This document shows positions 4,258 through 30,603 of a stretch of 64,000 bases of DNA, piece by piece. This DNA comes from Chloroflexota bacterium. GTDB taxonomy: Bacteria > Chloroflexota > Limnocylindria > P2-11E. The DNA is taken from positions 17,095 to 81,094 of the forward strand of contig JAJYLV010000004.1 of NCBI GenBank assembly GCA_021787445.1, given 5' to 3'. Within the stretch, counting starts at the first letter, position 1. Each line of letters opens with the position of its first letter. The translations under genes were made by a program, and so were the position numbers. The notes under the pieces were generated by a model, which saw only the letters and a program-made list of their open reading frames with translations, made no database searches and was not told where the DNA came from.

Positions 4258-6578
4258 AGCGTCACGATGGTCGCGCCGTCGCCGCCCTCGTTCCGCCCGG
4301 CCGTCGCGACCTCGCGCGCGAGCGGATGCTGCGCGAGCGCCGTGCGGATCGCCGCGCGAAGCGCTCCCGTGCCTTTCCCGTGCACGATGCGCACGCGCTC
4401 GTAGCCGGCGACCGCGGCGTCGTTCAGGTACCGGTCGACGGCCGCGATCGCCTCCTCCGCGCGCGCGCCGCGGATGTCGAGCTGCAACGGCACCTGCGCG
4501 GCCGTCCCCTGCACGGTGGCGCGCGAGGAGCGGACCGGCGCGGCGTCCGGCACGGGAGCCTCGCGGAGCTCGCTCGCCGGCACGCGCAGCCGCAGCGCGC
4601 CGGCGGCGACCTCGGCGACCCCCTTTGCGTCCAGCGACAGGAGCGTCCCCGGCTCGCTCATGCCCCGGATGACCACGGGGGACCCGACGGCGATCGGCAC
4701 CGTCGCGGACGGCGGCGGCGCGGGCGCGACGGCGTCGCGCGCCGCCTCGGCCTCCGCGAGCGCCGCGCGCGCATCCTCGACGAGGTCGCGCCGCGACGCG
4801 CGGTCGCGCGCCTCCTCGGCTTGGCGGATCGCGCGCCGCGCCTGGAGGAGGAGGTCCTCCGCTTCGGTGCGTGCCCGGCGGAGGCGCTCGTGCGCCTCGC
4901 CGCGGATGCGATCGGCCTCCCTTCGCGCCCCCTCGAGCGCGCGCTCGGCCTCGCGGGCCGACAGCGTCGCGCCCTCGAGCCGCTCGGCGAGGTCGGTCCG
5001 CGCGCGCTCCGCCTCACGCAGCGTGCGCTCGAGCGAGCGGTGCAGCTCCGAGAGGTGCGCTTCCGCGCGCTCGAGGACCGACGGCGCTAGGCCGAGGCGC
5101 GAGGCGATCGCGAACGCGTTCGACGCTCCCGGGAGCCCGAGGTGGACCCGGTACGTCGGGCGCAGGGTGACCGGATCGAACTCGACGCTCGCGTTCATCA
5201 CGCCGCGCGTGTTGAGCGCGAACGCCTTGAGCTCCGGGTAGTGCGTCGTCGCGGCGACGAGCGTGCCCCGCTCGAGAAGCGTCTCGAGGACGGCCATCGC
5301 GAGCGCGGCGCCTTCGTCCGGGTCGGTCCCCGCGCCGATCTCGTCGAGCAGCGCGAGGTCTCCCCCGCCCGCCTCGGCGAGGGTGGCGACGACGTTCCGC
5401 AGGTGCGACGAGAACGTCGAGAGCGACTGCTGGATCGACTGCTCGTCGCCGATGTCCGCGAACACGCTGCGGACGACCGGGAGGGTCGTGCCCGGCGCGG
5501 CCGGCACGGGCAGCCCGCATGCCGCCATGAGCGCGAGCAGCCCGATCGTCCGCAGGGTCACCGTCTTACCGCCCGTATTCGGCCCGGTCACCACCAGGGC
5601 GCGCGTCTCGCCGCCCAACCGCACGTCGATCGGCACGACCGCGTCGCCGAGCTGTCGGACGAGCAGAGGGTGACGCGCGTGGATCAGATCGATGACGCCC
5701 TCCGCCGAAAGGACCGGACGCACGCACTCGAAGCTCTCCGCGAAGTGCGCCCGCGCGAGGACGAGGTCGAGCGCGGCGAGCGCCGCGAGCACGGCCTCGA
5801 GCTCGGTGGCGGCCGCTTCCACCTGTCGCGAGAGCCGCGCCAGGACGCGCTCGACCTCGGCCTTCTCAGCGAGCTCCGCCTCGCGGAGCGTGTTGTTCGC
5901 GTCGAGGATGTCGAGGGGCTCGACGAACACCGTCGCCCCGCTCGCGGAGCGGTCGTGCACGATCCCCTTCACGGCGCTCGCGTACTCGGCCTTGACGGGC
6001 ACGACGTATCGCCCGCCGCGCTGCGTGACGATCGGCTCCTGCAGCATCTTCGCGAGCGACGGCGAACGGAGGAGGCCGTCGACGCGCTGCTGGAGTCGCG
6101 CCAGCGCCGAGCGGAGCTCGGCGCGGGCGCTCGCGAGGGCGACGCTCGCGCGGTCGAGGACCTCCCCTTCGGGCGAGATGGCATGCTCGATCGCCTGCGC
6201 GGCCTCGGCCGGCGGCCGCGCGAAGCGAGCCCGCGCGGCGAGCGGAGGATACGTCCCGACCTGCCCGAACAGGGCCTCGGCGGCGCGGACGGTCGCGGCG
6301 ACCCCGTAGAGCTGCTCGGGATCGAGCACGCCGCCGAGGCGCGAGCGCCGCAGCGGCTCGCGGATGTCGCGCGCCCCGCGCAGCCCCGCCGACGGGACAG
6401 CGCGCATGAGGTCGCGCGCGGCGGCCGTCTCGTCCTGGAGGCGCTCGGCGTCGCCCAGGTCGGTGACCGGCTCCATGGCTTCGGCGAGCTCGCGCCCGGG
6501 CTGGAACGAGGTGCTCTCGGCGACGATCTCGCGCACCGCCGTCAGCTCGAGGACGCGCAGGGTGCGCTCGCTGGTCAT
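4254..6578 (-). CDS. mutS2: endonuclease MutS2 (MutS domain plus C-terminal Smr domain)
   Basis: 774 aa. Walker A GPNTGGKT, MutS ATPase core and a C-terminal Smr domain (LDIRGARAEEA...VRIVHGKGTGALR). Confidence 0.9.
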   Translation of the reverse strand: MTSERTLRVLELTAVREIVAESTSFQPGRELAEAMEPVTDLGDAERLQDETAAARDLMRAVPSAGLRGARDIREPLRRSRLGGVLDPEQLYGVAATVRAAEALFGQVGTYPPLAARARFARPPAEAAQAIEHAISPEGEVLDRASVALASARAELRSALARLQQRVDGLLRSPSLAKMLQEPIVTQRGGRYVVPVKAEYASAVKGIVHDRSASGATVFVEPLDILDANNTLREAELAEKAEVERVLARLSRQVEAAATELEAVLAALAALDLVLARAHFAESFECVRPVLSAEGVIDLIHARHPLLVRQLGDAVVPIDVRLGGETRALVVTGPNTGGKTVTLRTIGLLALMAACGLPVPAAPGTTLPVVRSVFADIGDEQSIQQSLSTFSSHLRNVVATLAEAGGGDLALLDEIGAGTDPDEGAALAMAVLETLLERGTLVAATTHYPELKAFALNTRGVMNASVEFDPVTLRPTYRVHLGLPGASNAFAIASRLGLAPSVLERAEAHLSELHRSLERTLREAERARTDLAERLEGATLSAREAERALEGARREADRIRGEAHERLRRARTEAEDLLLQARRAIRQAEEARDRASRRDLVEDARAALAEAEAARDAVAPAPPPSATVPIAVGSPVVIRGMSEPGTLLSLDAKGVAEVAAGALRLRVPASELREAPVPDAAPVRSSRATVQGTAAQVPLQLDIRGARAEEAIAAVDRYLNDAAVAGYERVRIVHGKGTGALRAAIRTALAQHPLAREVATAGRNEGGDGATIVTL

Positions 6579-21690: not shown

Positions 21691-22815
21691 CTACCGCCAC
21701 GCGCGGGGGCGGTCGACCTCTCTGCGCTCCTGTCCGAACGCGCGAAAGCCCGCGGCCGGAGCGTCCTTCGCGAACAGGAGGACGCGGAACGCCCCCAGGC
21801 CGTTCGGATCGAGCAGCGTGTCCACGGCGGAGCGCCGGCTTGCGGCGCGCAGCTGCTCCAGGGGCGTCGACGGACGCGCCGCAGCCTCGCGGGCGCCGAG
21901 CGCGAGCAGCACCTCACGCTGCGTCCGTGCGCCGGCCAGCCGCAGCCCGGCGCCCTCGGCGGCGCGCCGTATCGCGGTGACGTTCACCGTCGCGGTGATG
22001 TCGATCTCCCCCGGACGCTGGAGCGGGTCGCCCATCAGGCGGTGCCGGCTGAACCCGCGGAGCGTCCCCTCGCCGAGGCGCGCGAGGAGACCCGCCTCGT
22101 CGTCGGCGTAGTCGATGAGGAGGAGGTAGCCGCGCGTGAGCGCGGCGGCGATCTGAGCGACCCAGCTTTCGGCCGCCAGGCTCACCTCCCAGCGCCCCCC
22201 CATCGGCAGCGTCTCCGGCACACGCCACCGCAGATCGGGCCGGCTGGCCGCGCGCAGCGTCTCCACGAGCCGGCTTCCCTCGGCGGCCACGTACACCTCG
22301 CGCACGCCGTCCTCGGTCCGCACCAGGACGTGGACCGGGAAGGCGTCGAGCACCTCGTTGCCGAAGATGAGACCGTGGATCGGCGCGAGCCCGTGCGCCG
22401 CCGTCGCCCACCGCAGCTCGCGCCCGCCGAGCGCGATCGCCTGGAGGTCGCGCAGGCGTGGCGACACCTCGACGATCGCGGGACGGGCTCCGCGCGCCGC
22501 GTCGGGACGCTCCCGCTCCAGAGCGGCGAGGAGGTCGCGCATGACGATGCCGCGCCCCGCGCCGGCCTCGACCAGGTCCCAGGCTGCGGGCCGCCCGAGC
22601 GCGGTGTGTGCGTCGATCGCCATCCGCGCGAGGGCGCGGCCGAAGGACGGACCGAGATCGCCCGACGTGAAGTAATCGGCGTCCTCGAAGCCGATCGCGG
22701 CGCGCGTGGTGTAGTAGCCGTCCTCGGGGTCGAAGAGGGCCGCTTCCATGAAGCTGGCGAAGGTGATGGGGCCGTTCGACCGGATACGCGCGATCAGACG
22801 GTCGGCCAGCGCCAC
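21691..22815 (-). CDS. SAM-dependent methyltransferase, MidA/NDUFAF7 family (DUF185, COG1565)
   Basis: LIARIRSNGPITFASFMEAALFDPEDGYYT N-terminus and Rossmann-like motifs (EAGAGRG). The start is uncertain; a GTG near 22815 is proposed. The track ORF extends to 23535. Confidence 0.7.
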   Translation of the reverse strand: MALADRLIARIRSNGPITFASFMEAALFDPEDGYYTTRAAIGFEDADYFTSGDLGPSFGRALARMAIDAHTALGRPAAWDLVEAGAGRGIVMRDLLAALERERPDAARGARPAIVEVSPRLRDLQAIALGGRELRWATAAHGLAPIHGLIFGNEVLDAFPVHVLVRTEDGVREVYVAAEGSRLVETLRAASRPDLRWRVPETLPMGGRWEVSLAAESWVAQIAAALTRGYLLLIDYADDEAGLLARLGEGTLRGFSRHRLMGDPLQRPGEIDITATVNVTAIRRAAEGAGLRLAGARTQREVLLALGAREAAARPSTPLEQLRAASRRSAVDTLLDPNGLGAFRVLLFAKDAPAAGFRAFGQERREVDRPRAWR

Positions 22816-23528
22816 GCGCCGAGGGTAGTCGCTCCCGACGGGCGGGAGGTCGCGCTCGGCGTCGGGAAGGGGTGGAAGCCGCTCTCGACGTAGTGGTCTC
22901 CGGCCCACGTGAACGTGCGCAGGATCCGCGGGTCGAAGCGTCCCCCGGCGACCCTGCCGCTCCCCTCGAGGACCGCCACGCGCCCCGGCGCGAGCTCGAT
23001 CTCCGCGAGCGCGCCGACGGGCCGGCGCAGAAGCTCCTCCATCCGCCCGCGCACCCATCGCGCGATCACGACCTCGTTCCGGCCGCAGGCCGTGCCGCCG
23101 CACTGGCCCACGACGTAGACGAGGTGCTCCTCGCCCGTGCCCGACGGGACGACAGCCAGCCTGAGGATGCGCCGCGCTTGTGCGGTCGCGGCGCTCTGGA
23201 ACGTGAGGTCGACGAGCGGCGACGCCGCGCCCGGCGGGCCGACACGCAGGTGCTGCGAGAGGACGGGCGGCTTCACCCTCACCCAGGTCTGGCGGAGCTC
23301 GACCTCGAGCGGTGGACCGCCCTGCTGTTCGATGGGGAAGGCGCAGCGCGCGTCGTTCCCCACCGGGAGGTACTGCCGCAAGGCGCAGAGGTCGTCGTCG
23401 ACGGGCGCCGCCGCGACCGCCGTCGAACGCGGCGCGAGAAGTCCCGACCAGTCGGCCAGGATCGCCCCGACCGCCGCCCAGGCGAGCACCGCGACGGAGA
23501 CCGCCAAGAGCCGCGCGCCCCTCCGCAT
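22794..23528 (-). CDS. hypothetical protein with N-terminal signal-anchor
   Basis: 244 aa. Hydrophobic N-terminus (LLAVSVAVLAWAAVGAIL), coding-like composition, and co-directional with the flanking genes. Confidence 0.45.
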   Translation of the reverse strand: MRRGARLLAVSVAVLAWAAVGAILADWSGLLAPRSTAVAAAPVDDDLCALRQYLPVGNDARCAFPIEQQGGPPLEVELRQTWVRVKPPVLSQHLRVGPPGAASPLVDLTFQSAATAQARRILRLAVVPSGTGEEHLVYVVGQCGGTACGRNEVVIARWVRGRMEELLRRPVGALAEIELAPGRVAVLEGSGRVAGGRFDPRILRTFTWAGDHYVESGFHPFPTPSATSRPSGATTLGAWRWPTV

Positions 23529-23575: not shown

Positions 23576-25990
23576 TCAGGCCCCCCAGCGAGGCGGCGCC
23601 GGCGGACGGACCTCCGGCGGACGCACCCTTCCGCGACGCTCCTCGCCGTCGGTGGGGATGGCCTCGCTCGGCTTCCAGGTCCGCGCGACGGCCAGCTCCT
23701 CCTTGGCGACGACGGTCCGCCCGAAACGCTGGTACACGGAGAGCTCGAAGTTCGGCGTCTCGCCGAGCGCGGCGTGGGGGCACACTTCGACGCAATCGCC
23801 GCAGTAGATGCAGCGGGTGATGTCGAGCTCCCACGTCTCGAGGTCGCGCTCGCGCATCATGAGCGCGCCCGTCGGGCACGTCTCCGCGCACGCCCCGCAC
23901 GACACGCAGTCGGTGTACTGGAGCGACACGTTCCACGGGGTCGTGACGATCGAGTCGTACCCGACGCCCATGAGGCCGTAGCAGTTCGCGCCGATCACGT
24001 CGCGGCAGATGCGCACGCACTGCGTGCAGTTGATGCACTTGTTGAGGTCGCGAAGGATGAAGTCGTGGCTGAAGTCGTACTCGTAGTCGTGGAAGTCGCG
24101 CGGCTCCGCCCGGTGGAAGCGGTTATCGGTCAGGCCGTGCTCGAGCGAGAGGCGCTGCAGGTGGCAGCGGCCGACGTCCGGGCACACGCACTGTAGGCAG
24201 CGCGCGGCCTCCTTCTCGGCCTGCGGCTTGGCGTATCCGTTCTCGATGAGCTGGAAGCTCTGCACCCGCTGGTCGAAGGGCAGGAACGGCATGCGGACCT
24301 GCGGCTCCTCGGGCTTGTAGGGCACGATGTCGATGAGCTCCGGCACCGACTCCTCTTCGGTGATCTCGGCGGCGACGCGCGCCATGTCGGCGCCGCTCAG
24401 GTACTGATCGATCGCTTTCGCCGCGAGCTTGCCCTGCGCGACCGATTGGATGACCGTGACCGCGCCCATCTGACAGTCGCCGCCGGCGAAGACGCCGGGG
24501 CGGTCCGTCATGAGCGCACCGCTGGCGACGATCGTCTCGCGCCGCGTCTTGCGCAGCCCCGGCGACCCCTCATACCAGTCGAGGTTCGGGACCTGGCCGA
24601 TCGCGGGGATGACGGTGTCGCACTCGATGACGAAGTCGGAGCCCTCGATCGGGACGGGACGCCGCCGGCCGGAGGCGTCCGGCTCGCCGAGCGCCATGCG
24701 CTGGAACTCGACGCCGCCCACGCGGCCGTCCTTCTCGACGACCTTCACCGGGGCCGCGAAGAACTCCAGCCGGATGCCCTCGTGCTCGGCGTCGTCGACC
24801 TCGCTGTAGTGCGCACCCATCTCCTTGCGCGAGCGGCGGTACACCACCGTCACGTCCGCGCCGAGGCGGCGCGAGGTGCGCGAGCAGTCGAACGTCGTGA
24901 AGCCTCCGCCGATGACGACGACCCTGCTGCCCTTCCCCACCGGCACCGGGTCGCCGGAGGCGTTCTGGTTCAAGTAGCTGATGGCCTCGATGACGCCGGG
25001 AAGATCCTCGCCGGGGATGCGGAGCTCGTTGCTCCGCCACGCGCCGAGCCCGAGGAAGACGGCGTCGTAGCCCTGCGCGAAGAGGTCATCGACCGTGAAG
25101 TCTCGGCCGAGCATCATCCCGCCCTTGAACTCGGCACCCAGCTGCCACACGCAGTTGAGCTCCTTGTCGAGCTTCACCTTGGGCAGGCGGTACTCGGGGA
25201 TGCCGTAGCGGAGCATCCCGCCCTGCTTCGGCATCATGTCGAACACCGTCACCTGGTGGCCCTTGAGCGAGGAGTAGTAGGCGCACGTCATCCCCGCGGG
25301 TCCCGCGCCGACGACGGCGACCCTCTTCCCCGTCGCCGGCGCCTGCGGGAACGGCGTCGGCGCCTTCTCCATCTCCGCGGAGAGCTCGCCGAAATAGCCG
25401 TGGCACTGGCGGATGGCGATCTCCTCCTCCACCAGGCCGCGGCGGCAGACCTCCTGGCACGGCGCCGGACAGACGAGGCCGAGCGCGTACGGGAACGGAA
25501 GCGTCTCCTTGAGCACGCGCGCGGCCTCGATGTGCTGGCCCTTGGCCTCGAGCTCGAGGAAGCCGGGGATGTCGATGTGCGTCGGGCAGCCGACCTGGCA
25601 GGGCGGCATGCAGTAGGCGTTGTGATCGCTGAGGATGTACTCGAGGTTCTGGCGTCGCTTCGTGAAGAGGCCGTCGCTCGTCGCCTTGATCTTCATGCCG
25701 GGCTGGACGGGCAGGTGGCACGACGGCATCGGCCGCTCGAAGCCCTCGATCTCGACGAGACACATGCGGCACGCCGCCGCGGGAGCGAGCTTCTCGTCGT
25801 CGCACAGCGTCGGGATGTTGTATCCGGCGCGTTGGGCCGCGCGGAGGATCGACTCGCCGATGGCGGCGGTGACCTCCTGGCCGTCGATCTCGATCGTGCA
25901 CGTGGGCATCCCCGAGGGGATCTCCCCGTGGTGCGACACGGTGGGGATCTGCGACTCGGTCGATTGGACGTACCGTTCGAGGATGCTCAC
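23576..25990 (-). CDS. multidomain iron-sulfur flavoprotein: NuoG-like N-terminal [2Fe-2S] ferredoxin + GltD-like FAD/NAD(P)H oxidoreductase + NuoG-like [4Fe-4S] motif + 2x[4Fe-4S] ferredoxin
   Basis: N-terminus TIEIDGQEVTAA...CDDEKLAPAAACRMCLVEIEG...PSCHLPVQPG (NuoG/2Fe-2S). Then CMPPCQVGCPTHIDIPGFL...LVCPAPCQEVC...KRVAVVGAGPAGMTCAYY...YGIPEYRLPK (GltD family). Then CINCTQCVRIC (NuoG N4-like), CVSCGACAETCP and CIYCGDCVEVCP. Confidence 0.8.
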   Translation of the reverse strand: MSILERYVQSTESQIPTVSHHGEIPSGMPTCTIEIDGQEVTAAIGESILRAAQRAGYNIPTLCDDEKLAPAAACRMCLVEIEGFERPMPSCHLPVQPGMKIKATSDGLFTKRRQNLEYILSDHNAYCMPPCQVGCPTHIDIPGFLELEAKGQHIEAARVLKETLPFPYALGLVCPAPCQEVCRRGLVEEEIAIRQCHGYFGELSAEMEKAPTPFPQAPATGKRVAVVGAGPAGMTCAYYSSLKGHQVTVFDMMPKQGGMLRYGIPEYRLPKVKLDKELNCVWQLGAEFKGGMMLGRDFTVDDLFAQGYDAVFLGLGAWRSNELRIPGEDLPGVIEAISYLNQNASGDPVPVGKGSRVVVIGGGFTTFDCSRTSRRLGADVTVVYRRSRKEMGAHYSEVDDAEHEGIRLEFFAAPVKVVEKDGRVGGVEFQRMALGEPDASGRRRPVPIEGSDFVIECDTVIPAIGQVPNLDWYEGSPGLRKTRRETIVASGALMTDRPGVFAGGDCQMGAVTVIQSVAQGKLAAKAIDQYLSGADMARVAAEITEEESVPELIDIVPYKPEEPQVRMPFLPFDQRVQSFQLIENGYAKPQAEKEAARCLQCVCPDVGRCHLQRLSLEHGLTDNRFHRAEPRDFHDYEYDFSHDFILRDLNKCINCTQCVRICRDVIGANCYGLMGVGYDSIVTTPWNVSLQYTDCVSCGACAETCPTGALMMRERDLETWELDITRCIYCGDCVEVCPHAALGETPNFELSVYQRFGRTVVAKEELAVARTWKPSEAIPTDGEERRGRVRPPEVRPPAPPRWGA

Positions 25991-26005: not shown

Positions 26006-27241
26006 CTAGGGCTGCGCCATCGTCTCGTAGCGCCGCGCGCGGACCGGCGTGCAGGTCCCCTCCGGACAGCGGCGGTCGACGATGTGCGTGCGGTAGTCAT
26101 CCGGGAACTCGGCGAGCGTCGTCCGCACGATCGACGCGCTCGTGATCCCGAAGCCGCACAGCGAGAAATCGCTCAGGTGATCCGCGAGCTGGCCGAGCCA
26201 CGCGAGGTCGTCGTCGCGGCCGAGCCCCGAGGAGACGGACTCGAGGATCCCCCCGACGCGCTTGGTCCCGACGCGGCACGGCACGCAGATCGCGCAGGTC
26301 TCCTTCGACAGGTACTCGAAGAGGCGCGCCGCCTCCGCGACGATGCAGGTGCCCTCCGGGATCGCGCGCACCTGTCCGGATCCCATGTACGTTCCCGCCG
26401 CGCGAAGGTCCTCGTAGTCGTAGCGCACGCCTGTCCGGGTCGAGCTGAGGATCCCGCACGTCGGCCCTCCGACGTGGATCGCCTTGAGCGCGTGGGTCAC
26501 CCCGCCCGCCGTCTGGACGATCTCGCCGAGCGTCGTCCCGAGGCTCACCTCGTACACACCGGGCTCCACGACGGCTCCCGTGACCGAGACGAGCTTCGTC
26601 CCGCGGGAGCCCTCCCGGCCCCCGAAGGAGTCCGGGCCGTCGCGCACGATGAGGGGAAGCGCCGCGAGGGTCTCCGCGCACGAGACGAGCGTCGGCCGCA
26701 TCGCCCGCCCCTGCTCCGCCGGCCACGGCGGCCGCTGGCGCGCCATCGCGCGCTTGTTCTCGAGGACCGCGAGCAGCGCGCTCTCCTCCCCGCCCATGAA
26801 GCCGCCGGGGCCGAGCGCGATCTCGATCGACACGTCCGTCCTGCCGTCGCGCGAGGCGATGGCCCTCTCCGCGGCGCTCCGCGCGTCCGCCGCCTCGGGG
26901 CGCAGGTAGAGGTAGGCCTGGCGCGCCCCGACCGCCCGTGCCGCGATGAGGATCCCGTCGACGACGAGCTCGGGCGAGCGCCGCAGCAGCGTCTGCGACA
27001 GGGGGCTGGCGGGGTCCGCGTCGTACGCGTTGGCGACGAGGTAGGCGGCCCCGCCCGCGAGCTCGGCCGCGGTCCGCGTGGCCCGCATCTTCTCTCCGAG
27101 GGGGAAGCCGGCGCCGCCGCGTCCGCGCAGCGCCGCGCTCTCCACCAGCCCGATCGTCTCGTCGGGCGAGAGCGAGAGAGCGCGCTCGAGGGCGCCCGAC
27201 GGGTCGGCCCCCAGGACGCGGAACGCCGTCTCAGTCGGCAT
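26006..27241 (-). CDS. nuoF: NADH dehydrogenase 51-kDa subunit homolog (NuoF-like; FMN/NADH binding, [4Fe-4S])
   Basis: GRGGAGFPLGEKM, GEESALLAVLENKRA and the cluster N3 motif ETCAICVPCRVG...LCGFG. Confidence 0.85.
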   Translation of the reverse strand: MPTETAFRVLGADPSGALERALSLSPDETIGLVESAALRGRGGAGFPLGEKMRATRTAAELAGGAAYLVANAYDADPASPLSQTLLRRSPELVVDGILIAARAVGARQAYLYLRPEAADARSAAERAIASRDGRTDVSIEIALGPGGFMGGEESALLAVLENKRAMARQRPPWPAEQGRAMRPTLVSCAETLAALPLIVRDGPDSFGGREGSRGTKLVSVTGAVVEPGVYEVSLGTTLGEIVQTAGGVTHALKAIHVGGPTCGILSSTRTGVRYDYEDLRAAGTYMGSGQVRAIPEGTCIVAEAARLFEYLSKETCAICVPCRVGTKRVGGILESVSSGLGRDDDLAWLGQLADHLSDFSLCGFGITSASIVRTTLAEFPDDYRTHIVDRRCPEGTCTPVRARRYETMAQP

Positions 27242-27953
27242 ACGCGGGCTCCAGCGGTTGCTCTATCTCCGATTCGTGCAGCCTGTCGTACGCCGGAGGC
27301 GGCGACACCGGCGGCCACGCGCCGGCGATGCCGAGGTTGCCCGTGTAGCGCCGGCCACCGCGGGGCACCGGGGTCCCTCTGCCCGCGGGAGCGCCGTGGA
27401 AGTTCGGCAGCATCGAGGCCGCCGTGTAGATGCTCGTCATGGTCATGTCGAACTCCGCGGCGATGAGCTCGGCGGCGGTCCACGGCAGGTATCCGTACGC
27501 CTGGTGCGCCGCGTAGAGCACGCGGTGAAGGCGGTCCGCGGTGTGCGGCGTCTCGGTGAGGATGCGACGCATGGGTCCGAGGTCGAGCGCGGTCTCCTCC
27601 TCCGCGGGAACGGTCGTCACCACCTGCGACATCGGCCGGCGCGCCCCGTAGGGCGCGGAGCAGACCATGCGGATCCGGTAGTAGGCCATGCGCGGCGCCA
27701 TCGTCGGGCGCTTGCGGAAGCCGTTGCGGAACGTGTACGAGATCGAGATCGCGCGCGGCGGGCACGCTTTCTCGCACATGAGGCACGACTCGCACTTGAA
27801 AATGTCCGTCTCCGGCTCGAGGAGGAGCGCGATGAGGCCGCGGCTCCGCTCGGGGAGCTCCCGCTTCTCGTACGGGTACTTCCGCGTGACGGCCTTGTGC
27901 CGCAGCAGGTGGTCCATCGTCCGGCGCAGCCCGATGAAGATGCCGCTGATCAT
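27231..27953 (-). CDS. chimeric or degenerate ORF: NuoI-like N-terminal half (one CxxCxxCxxxCP motif) fused to a NuoE-like N-terminal helical domain that lacks the [2Fe-2S] cysteines
   Basis: Residues 1-95 match NuoI (RKYPYEKRELPERSRG...KCESCLMCEKACPPRAISI...YYRIRMVC) but the second ferredoxin motif is missing. Residues about 125-190 match the NuoE N-terminal domain (LHRVLYAAHQAYGYLPWTAAELIAAEFDMTMTSIYTAASMLPNFHGAPAGR). No Cys-bearing continuation is found in any frame. Confidence 0.5.
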   Translation of the reverse strand: MISGIFIGLRRTMDHLLRHKAVTRKYPYEKRELPERSRGLIALLLEPETDIFKCESCLMCEKACPPRAISISYTFRNGFRKRPTMAPRMAYYRIRMVCSAPYGARRPMSQVVTTVPAEEETALDLGPMRRILTETPHTADRLHRVLYAAHQAYGYLPWTAAELIAAEFDMTMTSIYTAASMLPNFHGAPAGRGTPVPRGGRRYTGNLGIAGAWPPVSPPPAYDRLHESEIEQPLEPAYAD

Positions 27954-29172: not shown

Positions 29173-29757
29173 TCAACCACCCCGGAAGATCTTCTCGCGG
29201 AGCCGCAGGATGCCCTCGATCAGCGCCTCGGGGCGCGGCGGGCAACCGGGAACGTACACGTCGACCGGGACGACCGTGTCGACCCCCTGCAGCGTCGCAT
29301 AGCTGTCCCAGAACTCTCCGCCCGACGACGCGCAGTTGCCCATCGCGATCACCCACTTCGGCTCGGGCATCTGCTCGTAGAGGCGCCGCAGCCGCGGCGC
29401 CATCTTGTGCGTCACCGTGCCCGCGACGATCATGACGTCCGCCTGCCGGGGGCTCGAGCGGAAGACCTCGGCGCCGAACCGCGCGAGGTCGTGATGCGAG
29501 GCGGAAGCCGCCATCATCTCGATGGCGCAGCACGCCAGGCCGTAGCCGAGCGGCCACGGGCTGCGCGAGCGCGCCCAGCTCATGAGGTCCTTGACCGTCG
29601 CGAACACGACGTTGTCCTCGTTCGCGATCGCGCCGGGGGTCGGGGCGACGTAGTCGGGCGCCCCAAGGCCTGTCTGGGTGGTCGTCGGCCGCTGCTTCAG
29701 CGCGTCCGAGATCTCGAAGTGGATCGGCCGCGCGGGGGGCTTCTGGTCGACTGCCAT
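29173..29757 (-). CDS. nuoB: NADH dehydrogenase 20-kDa subunit homolog (NuoB-like, cluster N2 ligands present)
   Basis: [15 protein letters not shown] and GCPPRPE motifs. Confidence 0.85.
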
Positions 29758-29769
29758 CTGAGGTGGAGT

Positions 29770-30603
29770 CTAGGGAAGATCGCGCGGACCTTGCACGCGA
29801 AGCAGCAGCGCGACGAGGGCCTGGTGTATCCCCGGCCCGCTCGCGACCAGCGTCGGTGCGTCCGGCCGTACGCCCTTCGTCTCGCTGAGCATCCCTCCCG
29901 CCTCCGACACGAGGAGCCGTCCGGCCGCGCAGTCCCACTCGTGCCCGCCCGATTCCGCGTACGCATCCAGTCGCGACCCGGCGACCCACGCGAGGTCGAG
30001 CGCCGCCGATCCCATGCGTCGCACGTCGCGGACGGCCGGCACGATGAGCGCTTCGCGGCGCGCTTGCTCGCGCCGCTCCTCGGCGCTGTACGAGAACCCG
30101 TCGGCCAGGAGCGCGAGGCCCAGGTCGGCGACGCGGCTCACCGCGAGGCGGCGTGCCCCTGACGCGTCCGCCGACGCCCGCAGCCAGGCGCCCTCGCCGC
30201 GCACCGCGGAGAAGAGCTCATCGCGCGTCGGGTCGTAGGTCACTCCGACGAGGGGTCCGCGTGCGTCCGCGCACGCGATCGTCACGCACCACTGCGGGAT
30301 CCGGTAGAGGTAGTTCACCGTTCCGTCGAGGGGATCGACGAGCCAGCGCCGTCCCGAGGTCCCGCCCGAGCCGCCGCCCTCCTCCGAGACGATCGCGTCG
30401 TCGGGATACGTGCGACGGATCGCCGCCACGATGAGCGCTTCCGAGGCGCGGTCGGCGTCGCTCACCTCGTCCGTCGGCGTCGTCTTCGTCGCGCGCCCGG
30501 TCGCCGGGCCGCTCCAGCGATCGAGGAGGAGGCGGCCGGCGGCGACCGCGGCGCCTTCCGCCGTCGCGAGCACGTCGGCGCACGACCTCGGCGGCGCCGT
30601 CAC
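29770..30603 (-). CDS. inositol monophosphatase family protein (SuhB/ImpA-like)
   Basis: WLVDPLDGTVNYL and WDCAAGRLLVSEAGG motifs. GTG start overlaps the upstream stop (GTGA). C-terminal part of a longer track ORF. Confidence 0.8.
   Translation of the reverse strand: MTAPPRSCADVLATAEGAAVAAGRLLLDRWSGPATGRATKTTPTDEVSDADRASEALIVAAIRRTYPDDAIVSEEGGGSGGTSGRRWLVDPLDGTVNYLYRIPQWCVTIACADARGPLVGVTYDPTRDELFSAVRGEGAWLRASADASGARRLAVSRVADLGLALLADGFSYSAEERREQARREALIVPAVRDVRRMGSAALDLAWVAGSRLDAYAESGGHEWDCAAGRLLVSEAGGMLSETKGVRPDAPTLVASGPGIHQALVALLLRVQGPRDLP

Follow-up and report, generated by a model that had tools for sequence, protein, structure and literature searches.

A NuoI domain apparently divided between two subunits in a complex I-related gene cluster of Limnocylindria

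Complex I is usually described as an assembly of fixed modules, the N module (NuoEFG), the Q module (NuoBCDI) and the P module, which corresponds to the membrane arm. In the NuoI-type fold, each of the two [4Fe-4S] clusters is ligated by three cysteines of one CxxCxxCxxxCP motif and by one cysteine of the other. The NuoE-type [2Fe-2S] cluster, known as N1a in complex I, lies off the main electron path and is required solely for electron bifurcation. This article deals with a cluster of five genes, nuoB-nuoD-[I/E]-nuoF-G', found in a stretch of 64,000 nucleotides (hereafter the window) from a Chloroflexota bacterium of the class Limnocylindria (GTDB lineage label P2-11E; assembly GCA_021787445.1, contig JAJYLV010000004.1, positions 17,095 to 81,094), and particularly with its central gene, I/E. 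This open reading frame (ORF) of 240 codons had been noticed from the sequence alone as half NuoI-like and half NuoE-like (the original prediction), and had been interpreted either as a genuine degenerate or chimeric scaffold subunit or as evidence of deletion and rearrangement. The comparative data presented here suggest that NuoI is probably split in this system by an inserted NAD(P)H module related to that of the Stn enzymes, and that its di-cluster domain would be rebuilt from two chains, I/E and the 804-amino acid protein G' encoded at the end of the cluster.

Several described systems depart from the canonical complex I or share subunits with it. Subunit fusions are a known theme among complex I variants, and the NuoI of Mbx-like operons is substituted by a GltD-related flavoprotein (PMC4758237). 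In the enzymes of the Bfu family, the NuoE-type [2Fe-2S] cluster is named C1 (PMC11829005). Their bifurcating site consists of B1, flavin mononucleotide (FMN) and C1, and both C1 and B3/B4 are essential (PMC11829005, PMC10482914); indeed, deletion of C1 in Stn ends bifurcation and leaves NADPH oxidation (PMC10482914, PMC11829005). A search of the literature for a split NuoI, or for a complex I input module of the GltD/Stn type, returned nothing specific, the nearest case being the GltD substitution of the Mbx-like operons (PMC4758237).

Architecture and conservation of I/E

The I/E gene begins with an ATG codon, with a GGAG sequence about 9 nt upstream, and its GC content by codon position (0.63/0.53/0.93) is a coding signature that matches that of the neighbouring genes. 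Its 3' end overlaps the start of nuoF by 11 nt (27231-27241), as originally noticed, and this overlap is kept in the related loci L001 and L003. The composite nature of the ORF was borne out as well: its NuoI-like part, with one motif, extends over residues ~4-82, and its NuoE-like part, which corresponds to the helical domain only, over residues ~120-195 (coordinates of all features are given in Table 1).

The NuoI-like half displays an amphipathic N-terminal helix, the sequence RKYPYEKR...RG, one ferredoxin motif and the strand YYRIRMV that precedes motif 2 in NuoI. Residues 9-82 match positions 2-72 of the 121 positions of the NCBIfam NuoI model TIGR01971 (E 2.7e-10; 39.9 bits, below the curated cut-off of 113.05 bits), and a profile made from Limnocylindria sequences only matches the TYKY/NuoI chains of the PDB (E 9e-10). 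The protein carries the cysteines C54, C57, C60, C64 and C98, the last of which is not conserved, and neither the ORF sequence nor the alignment contains the second ferredoxin motif of NuoI. I/E therefore resembles NuoI/Nqo9/TYKY (NDUFS8) by its N-terminal segment, in which the docking sequence (T-x-x-YP-x-EK...RG) precedes the first CxxCxxCxxxCP motif, and by the location of its gene directly after nuoH in related operons. It differs from NuoI in that its single motif is followed, further on, by a NuoE-type domain; G' carries motif 2 as well as the C-terminal tail.

The cysteine-free NuoE-like domain was recognized by several approaches. Residues 129-192 match positions 2-65 of the 145 positions of PF01257 (E 1.2e-4; 22.4 bits, which narrowly misses the gathering score of 24.8), and the Limnocylindria-only profile matches StnA (8oh5_A, 1.6e-8) and HydC (1.5e-7) of the PDB over residues ~120-195. 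The AlphaFold2 model of I/E alone displays a predicted local distance difference test (pLDDT) score above 90 at residues ~121-170 and of ~80 up to residue 190. The sole Foldseek matches of this model are the N-terminal helical domains of NuoE, FdsG, HydC, StnA and NfnC (rmsd ~1.7-3.7 Å over 62-77 columns). Like NuoE/Nqo2/24-kDa (NDUFV2), HydC, StnA and NfnC, I/E thus carries an N-terminal helical domain of the NuoF-binding type, and its gene lies directly upstream of nuoF and overlaps it. Unlike them, it has a NuoI half at its N-terminus and lacks the thioredoxin-like [2Fe-2S] domain: no cysteine is found beyond residue 98 and positions 66-145 of PF01257 are unmatched in I/E. The lineage-specific tail found instead follows the pattern PRGGRxxTG...WP...P.P.HD.L.E...EP.A and is modelled by AlphaFold2 with low confidence; its last 11 nt belong to the overlap with nuoF. 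No precomputed Pfam domain is attached to the protein, which the sources name only 'hypothetical protein' or 'ferredoxin'.

A search among 5.8 billion protein clusters yielded 645 full-length homologues of I/E (counted as protein clusters) of ~239 amino acids. Lengths, identities and taxa are known for the 120 matches listed of these 645; these are 230-252 amino acids long and 71-100% identical to I/E, and those with a named taxon come from Chloroflexota or Candidatus Limnocylindria. In addition, a scan of the GTDB species-representative genomes (one per species) revealed 259 I/E-related stretches confirmed by tblastn. The best 80 of these 259 stretches, which are the genomic loci considered below, essentially all belong to Limnocylindria metagenome-assembled genomes (MAGs), with a few contigs in bins named for other phyla. 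The I/E family abounds among the Chloroflexota of soils and fresh waters.

Conservation within I/E is highest in the NuoI-like half, in which 57 of the 100 columns are invariant among 76 distinct orthologues, versus 12 of the 67 columns of the NuoE-like domain. C54, C57, C60, C64 and P65 are invariant both in the Limnocylindria alignment and in the distant family, in which overall identity goes down to 22%; the four cysteines, the RG pair and a GYLP motif all hold in relatives that are 22-44% identical. Across loci, the mean identity to the window copy is ~72% for I/E, ~76% for NuoD and ~63% for NuoF. The statement of the original prediction that Fe-S ligands are missing in both halves is correct for the second ferredoxin motif and for the [2Fe-2S] cysteines; it was overstated for the NuoI half, whose four cysteines are invariant throughout the family. 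Likewise, 'degenerate' describes I/E poorly, as its NuoI-like half is the best conserved and the lacking motif is invariant at the C-terminus of the neighbouring 804-amino acid protein. The proposal of a genuine chimeric scaffold subunit is supported by the 645 homologues with their 71-86% identity, the 259 genomic places, the constancy of the five-gene cluster and the presence of the same fusion in full complex I operons. As judged from these comparisons, I/E is not a broken gene and would be a real, selected subunit of a complex I-related enzyme.

G' and the other partners of I/E

G' begins with a NuoG/HoxU-type [2Fe-2S] N-domain, followed by an inserted GltD-type domain with motifs for flavin adenine dinucleotide (FAD) and NADPH and with 2x[4Fe-4S]. 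Further on, it displays an all-cysteine cluster site (C598-C609), three ferredoxin motifs (C652-662, C695-705 and C727-737) and the sequence LGETPNFELS...KEEL. Its PDB matches are 9bov_A (NfnA of Caldicellulosiruptor, 1e-168), 8oh5_C (StnC of Sporomusa ovata, 2e-159) and 9n5u_A (an archaeal NfnA, 6e-149). The matches with 8oh5_C and 9bov_A cover residues 32-733 of G', StnC being aligned over its residues 4-695. All the motif cysteines of G' are invariant in 40/40 orthologues.

The half of NuoI that I/E lacks is apparently located near the C-terminus of this protein. Indeed, residues 713-775 of G' hold the strand WELDITR, the third ferredoxin motif and the NuoI-type tail that starts with LGETPNFELS. 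Positions 69-111 of the 121 positions of TIGR01971 correspond to G' residues 713-755, I/E covering the complementary positions 2-72. Coverage is also complementary in two distant lineages, L006 (positions 1-67 for I/E and 71-117 for G') and L093 (positions 1-65 for I/E and 41-111 for G'). When residues 1-97 of I/E and 727-804 of G' are joined in silico, they give one collinear match with positions 2-111/121 of the model, which scores 80 bits instead of 42.8 and 45.4 for the halves alone. A similar join made with the L006 proteins scores 82.9 bits over positions 1-117.

With their eight cysteines, the first two ferredoxin motifs of G' align with the F-domain of StnC, NfnA and HydA, which holds two clusters. 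A third ferredoxin motif is lacking in canonical StnC and NfnA, which continue at this place into a formate dehydrogenase (FDH)-like CxxCxxxC domain. Since motifs 1 and 2 complete the F-domain and StnC and NfnA lack the third motif, the latter is interpreted as an orphan motif of the NuoI type. The two orphan motifs, one in I/E and one in G', are found together in six out of six lineages examined (the window, L006, L093, L094, L097 and L090).

The trio formed by I/E, the NuoF-like protein and G' resembles StnABC (the Sporomusa-type Nfn, 8OH5) and NfnABC (9BOV, 9N5U), which also associate an E-like subunit, an F-like subunit and a fusion of NuoG N-domain and GltD whose insertion carries FAD and NADPH motifs. 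Unlike StnABC and NfnABC, the window trio lacks the C1 and B2-B5 domains, and the C-terminal half of NuoI replaces the FDH-like domain of StnC. Furthermore, its genes are joined to nuoB and nuoD, and in the relatives the trio is combined with all of a complex I membrane arm. From these domain matches, the NADH-input module (NuoE, F and G) would be replaced in this system by a Stn/Nfn-like trio.

G' also ends with a proline-rich conserved tail (...WKPSE.IP...VRPPEVRPPAPPRWGA; 23576-23720, minus strand). Only the window type of Limnocylindria displays these proline-rich tails of G' and I/E, which L093, L097 and L006 do not have; the tails may serve in docking or in association with the membrane.

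The NuoF-like protein holds the FMN loop, the GGEE motif and the cysteines of the [4Fe-4S] cluster N3/B1, all these ligands being invariant in 61/61 orthologues. Its best PDB matches, HydB, NfnB and StnB, concern only the core of these proteins (residues ~130-540 of ~600); in the PDB alignments, the N- and C-terminal cluster domains of BfuB/StnB are absent from this 411-amino acid protein. Its C-terminus carries the motif H-I-V-x-x-x-CP-x-G-x-C-x-P (26006-26090, minus strand), in which C392 and C397 are invariant in 61/61 orthologues. The motif is shared with L006, L093, L094 and L097; it may be what is left of the linker that leads to the C-terminal ferredoxin domain of BfuB, or else a small metal site.

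NuoB and NuoD are ordinary complex I proteins with the features expected of a Q module, namely the ligands of cluster N2 and the quinone-site His, Tyr and Asp. NuoB C76, C77, C142 and C172 are invariant in 57/57 orthologues. NuoD possesses the equivalents of H38, Y87 and D139 of Thermus thermophilus Nqo4, invariant in 59/59 orthologues, and none of the NiFe cysteines. Globally, the cluster ligands of NuoB, the NuoF-like protein and G', the FMN loop, the GGEE motif and the His, Tyr, Asp and Arg residues of NuoD are all invariant among 40-61 distinct orthologues. Because of this invariance of ligands and quinone-site residues, the B-D-[I/E]-F-G' cluster is read as encoding a working redox chain and not a decaying one.

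Alternative readings and the proposed electron path

Taken as a single sequence, I/E could pass for a decaying remnant or an artefact, in which a recent deletion, a rearrangement, a frameshift or an assembly error has destroyed nuoI and nuoE, as it is made of half-domains and has neither the second ferredoxin motif nor the [2Fe-2S] cysteines. Comparison with the related loci makes such an origin extremely improbable. The same length and architecture are found in the 645 protein clusters, which come from independent assemblies, and in the 259 genomic places; GC at third codon positions is 0.93, orthologue identity (72%) exceeds that of NuoF (63%), more than half of the columns of the N-terminal half are invariant (57/100) and the 11-nt overlap with nuoF is conserved, while the spread of orthologue identities (67-86%) excludes one clonal contaminant. 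A recurrent conserved architecture had been named beforehand as the outcome that would tell against a deletion or a sequencing indel, and its presence in homologues refutes this part of the original prediction; the pseudogene or indel reading was rejected on these comparative data. It is also very unlikely that I/E, F and G' form a bifurcating transhydrogenase of the Stn/NfnABC type, which would use NADPH, NAD+ and ferredoxin and in which NuoB and NuoD would be accessory. Such an enzyme is suggested by the closest relatives of G', F and the E part, which are StnC/NfnA, StnB/NfnB, StnA/NfnC and other subunits of the Bfu family. However, I/E lacks C1, which belongs to the bifurcating site and is needed along with B3/B4 (PMC11829005, PMC10482914). 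Moreover, the 411-amino acid F protein matches only the HydB/StnB/NfnB core and leaves no room for the terminal cluster domains, and in G' the NuoI tail takes the place of the FDH-like domain of StnC. Finally, the invariant N2 ligands of NuoB and quinone-site residues of NuoD argue for a working exit at this place. This candidate was rejected because C1 and B2-B5 are absent.

A further reading, which can be regarded as unlikely, also takes I/E for a genuine adaptor and leaves its motif unpaired with G'. Motifs 2 and 3 of G' would then form an ordinary 2x[4Fe-4S] NuoI-like domain and motif 1 a single cluster similar to N4 of NuoG, the motif of I/E either binding a cluster of its own with a non-cysteine or foreign fourth ligand or being structural. 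Several observations are in keeping with this wiring and weigh against a domain rebuilt from both chains: the Pfam di-cluster domain PF12838 spans residues 695-741 of G' as one domain and the ferredoxin motifs are mutually alike; in L093, both G' motifs are covered by the match with the NuoI model (positions 41-111); and the NuoI proteins of Escherichia coli and T. thermophilus align with G' from motif 2 on. Other data also count against a rebuilt NuoI domain. With 80 bits, and 82.9 bits for the L006 join, the joined virtual NuoI remains under the curated cut-off of 113 for NuoI, and the joined domain must therefore be considered divergent. AlphaFold2, applied to I/E alone, gives pLDDT values below 50 at residues 20-33, 36-47 and 55-110, the N-terminal helix being better; the model is confident only in this helix and in the NuoE-like domain, and leaves the fold of the NuoI-like half unsettled. 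Lastly, the orphan pair of L090 is found in a soluble Stn-like context adjoining pyruvate:ferredoxin oxidoreductase genes, with no NuoB, NuoD or NuoH encoded in the 7.8-kb contig: its NuoE-like subunit (P0229) bears the N-terminal orphan motif, and its 1060-amino acid StnC-like subunit bears the third motif, after which its C-terminal domain is of another kind. Complex I contexts are thus not the only ones in which the split di-cluster unit occurs and, given L090, either nuoI was split or an already split module was recruited. On the other side, an unpaired I/E motif would leave its four invariant cysteines without a complete ligand set of their own, and motif 1 of G' has a fourth cysteine (C662) that would be needless for a single-cluster N4 site. 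In addition, motifs 1 and 2 together match the F-domain, with its two clusters, of StnC, NfnA and HydA, and the coordinates of I/E and of the G' tail on the NuoI model are complementary and not redundant.

In the sequences, the first half of NuoI, i.e. the N-terminal docking segment and motif 1, is joined to the front of a NuoE-like protein. The second half, which comprises motif 2 and the tail that follows it, is joined to G' at its end, in place of the FDH-like domain of StnC/NfnA. The split of NuoI between I/E and G', which is retained here as probable, leads to the following model. C54-C64 of I/E and C727-C737 of G' would meet in trans to form the 2x[4Fe-4S] domain of NuoI, with equivalents of N6a and N6b. 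As each cluster of such a domain draws cysteines from both motifs, both clusters would bridge I/E and G'. The N-terminus of I/E would dock on NuoB/NuoD, as that of NuoI does, and its NuoE-like helical domain would clamp the NuoF-like flavoprotein, so that I/E would tie the nucleotide-oxidising module to NuoB/NuoD. Hydride would have two entries, one for NADH at the FMN of the F protein and one for NADPH at the FAD of the GltD domain in G'. From there, electrons would probably flow through the cluster chain of G' to the split-NuoI clusters, then to N2 in NuoB and to the acceptor site of NuoD/NuoB. In the absence of C1 and of the BfuB terminal domains with B2-B5, the enzyme should be a plain non-bifurcating NAD(P)H dehydrogenase.

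Related operons and the Limnocylindria cluster

An exhaustive profile search recovered 1046 proteins at E ≤0.001, including 72 at E ≤1e-10. The weaker matches are largely ordinary NuoI-type proteins, matched on their N-terminal half, and the stronger ones include full-length NuoI(N)-NuoE relatives that are 22-44% identical to I/E. In the operons of these relatives (Table 1), I/E follows nuoH and G' precedes nuoJ, so that the canonical order H-I-J becomes H-[I(N)-E]-F-[G'-I(C)]-J; the window cluster has neither nuoH nor nuoJ nearby. This order is the one that would be expected from the insertion of a stnABC-like cassette into nuoI, and no separate nuoI is found in the complete operon L094. The L097 cluster, which belongs to a Chloroflexi MAG, has no nuoJ-N genes within its 10-kb flank and may encode a non-pumping, membrane-anchored form. 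The L093 cluster has no nuoD within 10 kb, and a NuoB without adjacent NuoD is unexpected.

Table 1. Location of the features of the window and organization of related loci
Feature	Position	Strand	Basis or remark
PF02636 (Methyltransf_28) methyltransferase, downstream of the cluster	21691..22770	-	Pfam E 2.4e-53; start codon uncertain
244-amino acid ORF between G' and the methyltransferase	22794..23528	-	No Pfam match; poorly conserved; N-terminal hydrophobic segment (KD19 2.47)
G', 804-amino acid StnC/NfnA-like protein	23576..25990	-	Pfam, NCBIfam and PDB matches
NuoI C-terminal half, G' residues 713-775	23666..23854	-	TIGR01971 positions 69-111/121
Orphan third motif CIYCGDCVEVCP, G' C727-C737	23777..23812	-	Within the NuoI C-terminal half
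nuoF-like flavoprotein, 411 amino acids	26006..27241	-	Pfam, NCBIfam and PDB matches
I/E, 240-amino acid fusion of NuoI N-terminal half and NuoE N-terminal helical domain, with conserved Pro/Gly-rich tail	27231..27953	-	ORF, domain matches, homologues
I/E, lineage-specific conserved tail in place of the [2Fe-2S] thioredoxin-like domain, residues 193-240	27231..27377	-	Alignment, conservation
I/E, NuoE/HydC/StnA-type N-terminal helical domain, cysteine-free, residues 126-192	27378..27578	-	PF01257, StnA match, AlphaFold2, Foldseek
I/E, NuoI-like N-terminal half, residues 1-100	27654..27953	-	TIGR01971, PDB TYKY/NuoI chains, conservation
I/E, single CxxCxxCxxxCP motif CESCLMCEKACP, equivalent of NuoI motif 1, residues 54-65	27759..27794	-	Alignment
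nuoD, 398 amino acids	27967..29163	-	NF008974 6e-138
nuoB, 194 amino acids, four N2-cluster cysteines all present	29173..29757	-	NCBIfam NuoB 6e-73
Inositol-monophosphatase-family gene	29770..30600	-	Ends 12 nt before nuoB
L005: nuoA-B-C-D-H-[I/E]-F...
L006: (C)-D-H-[I/E]-F-G'-J-K
L088: D-H-[I/E]-F-G'
L090: soluble Stn-like trio adjoining pyruvate:ferredoxin oxidoreductase genes	1804-7726 of L090
L093: B-[I/E]-F-G' only	9392-14515 of L093
L094: PF02636, then A-B-C-D-H-[I/E]-F-G'-J-K-L/M/N	5625-20570 of L094
L097: A-B-C-D-H-[I/E]-F-G', then flavin reductase, ferredoxin and pyruvate:ferredoxin oxidoreductase genes	6481-17865 of L097		Chloroflexi MAG GCA_016190715.1

This system shares bona fide NuoB and NuoD with the complex I variants (Nuo14, Nuo13 with its NuoCD fusion, Nuo12 and the 11-subunit form devoid of NuoEFG), and the operons of the relatives also share with complex I the genes A, B, C, D, H, J, K, L, M and N. 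Unlike these variants, the relatives carry their input module between H and J and not between D and H, their NuoI is split and not fused, and an NADPH/FAD entry is added. Like the Mbx-like operons, this system associates a GltD-type NAD(P)H domain with a complex I-like core at the position of NuoI; here, however, both halves of NuoI are kept and the GltD domain is located within a NuoG/StnC-like chain, alongside a NuoF flavoprotein.

The relatives also differ in their NuoE part. The thioredoxin-like domain with all four cysteines is kept in P0151, P0152 and P0229, the [2Fe-2S] cysteine set is partial or altered in P0139, P0146, P0191 and P0213, and these cysteines are wholly lost in P0125, P0128, P0131, P0140, P0200 and the Limnocylindria. 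This graded series shows what sequence comparison indicates to be a stepwise loss of the NuoE [2Fe-2S] domain. Furthermore, P0166 (607 amino acids), whose cluster includes a member labelled Thermoleophilia bacterium, is an I(N)-E(N)-F triple fusion, which fits a role of the helical domain of E in tethering the NuoI half to the flavoprotein.

In the window, the genes from the phosphatase to the methyltransferase are separated by gaps of 9-47 nt or overlap, all of them being on the minus strand, and all Limnocylindria loci with sufficiently long flanks contain the B-D-[I/E]-F-G' block. The inositol-monophosphatase-family gene accompanies the cluster in 55 loci, other genes intervening in some of them (for example L003), and no functional link between the phosphatase and the cluster is evident. 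At the position of the 244-amino acid ORF, a gene of 219 amino acids is found in L001 and L002 and absent in L003 and L004; a tblastn relative of this ORF was detected in four loci only. The downstream methyltransferase gene is found in 43 loci (for example at 14985-16070 in L001 and 14637-15704 in L003), and in L094 a PF02636 gene (4889-5323) precedes the complete operon. We take this protein to be a member of the NDUFAF7/MidA family. NDUFAF7, the mitochondrial member, methylates an arginine of the NuoD homologue, and the corresponding residue of NuoD, R52 in HGVLR, is invariant in Limnocylindria. The label NDUFAF7 is applied to PF02636 in a preprint (bioRxiv 10.1101/2021.02.01.429150).

Some loci of the window type, 68-72% identical to the window copy, belong to MAGs labelled Udaeobacter, Saccharimonadales, Acidiferrales, Bathyarchaeia and Dormiibacterota (L034, L035, L049, L066 and L082); binning contamination seems more likely than real transfer in these cases. 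In the MAG SMAG_U4607, the cluster occurs on three contigs, which suggests mixed strains.

The genes of the complex I membrane arm were not found near the Limnocylindria cluster. Searches by tblastn with the L005 and L006 proteins detected no nuoA, nuoC, nuoH or nuoJ within 10 kb, either in the Limnocylindria loci or in the window, and no nuoA, C, H or J-N gene lies within 10 kb of the cluster in ~80 Limnocylindria loci. Likewise, no nuo family was found among the genes examined in the rest of the 64-kb window, and the five cluster proteins have no transmembrane-like segment. It is about equally likely that the Limnocylindria assembly works in a free-standing or peripheral form and that it attaches to a membrane arm whose genes lie elsewhere. 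The absence of nearby nuoC and nuoH and the lineage-specific tails of I/E and G' would be in keeping with an enzyme that stands free or is attached peripherally. As for a distant location of the other subunits, L093, with its nuoB devoid of a nearby nuoD, indicates that such clusters can be split across the genome.

A second, distant type of I/E (~241-282 amino acids; ~281 in the class Limnocylindria), 22-25% identical to the window copy, was found in 540 clusters, several of which are labelled Limnocylindria. It occurs in membrane-type operons, namely the complete operon of L094 and the nuoH-[I/E]-F-G' operon of a Limnocylindria MAG (L095, GCA_036279195.1), which resembles it. The class therefore seems to possess two paralogous systems, the window-type cluster resembling a paralogous set for the 'peripheral arm only'. 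Two features, the invariant residues of the quinone site and the linkage to the PF02636 methyltransferase, speak for the use of NuoB and NuoD as a real acceptor site. Tentatively, the whole could be envisaged as an enzyme in which NuoI is built in trans, with both [4Fe-4S] clusters lying across the subunit interface, and which would be in Limnocylindria a free-standing, non-pumping NADH/NADPH dehydrogenase, i.e. the quinone module of complex I without its membrane arm.

All the parts of this system are of known kinds: NuoI, NuoE, NuoF, StnC/NfnA, NuoB and NuoD. Three features were not found in the literature searched and are apparently new, namely the division of NuoI between two chains, the presence of a Stn/Nfn-type, NADPH-capable module in complex I operons and a widespread derivative devoid of membrane-subunit genes. 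Contrary to the usual picture of fixed modules, a module related to the bifurcating Stn/Nfn enzymes seems to have become inserted in the middle of nuoI. If this is true, the family would offer a natural 'split ferredoxin' and a second entry, by NADPH and FAD, into the electron chain. The graded loss of the NuoE [2Fe-2S] domain is a natural experiment that bears on the purpose of N1a and on the way in which complex I gained its input modules. Finally, the Limnocylindria cluster, with NuoB, NuoD and their quinone-site residues and without adjoining membrane-subunit genes, could show whether a Q module works off the membrane arm.

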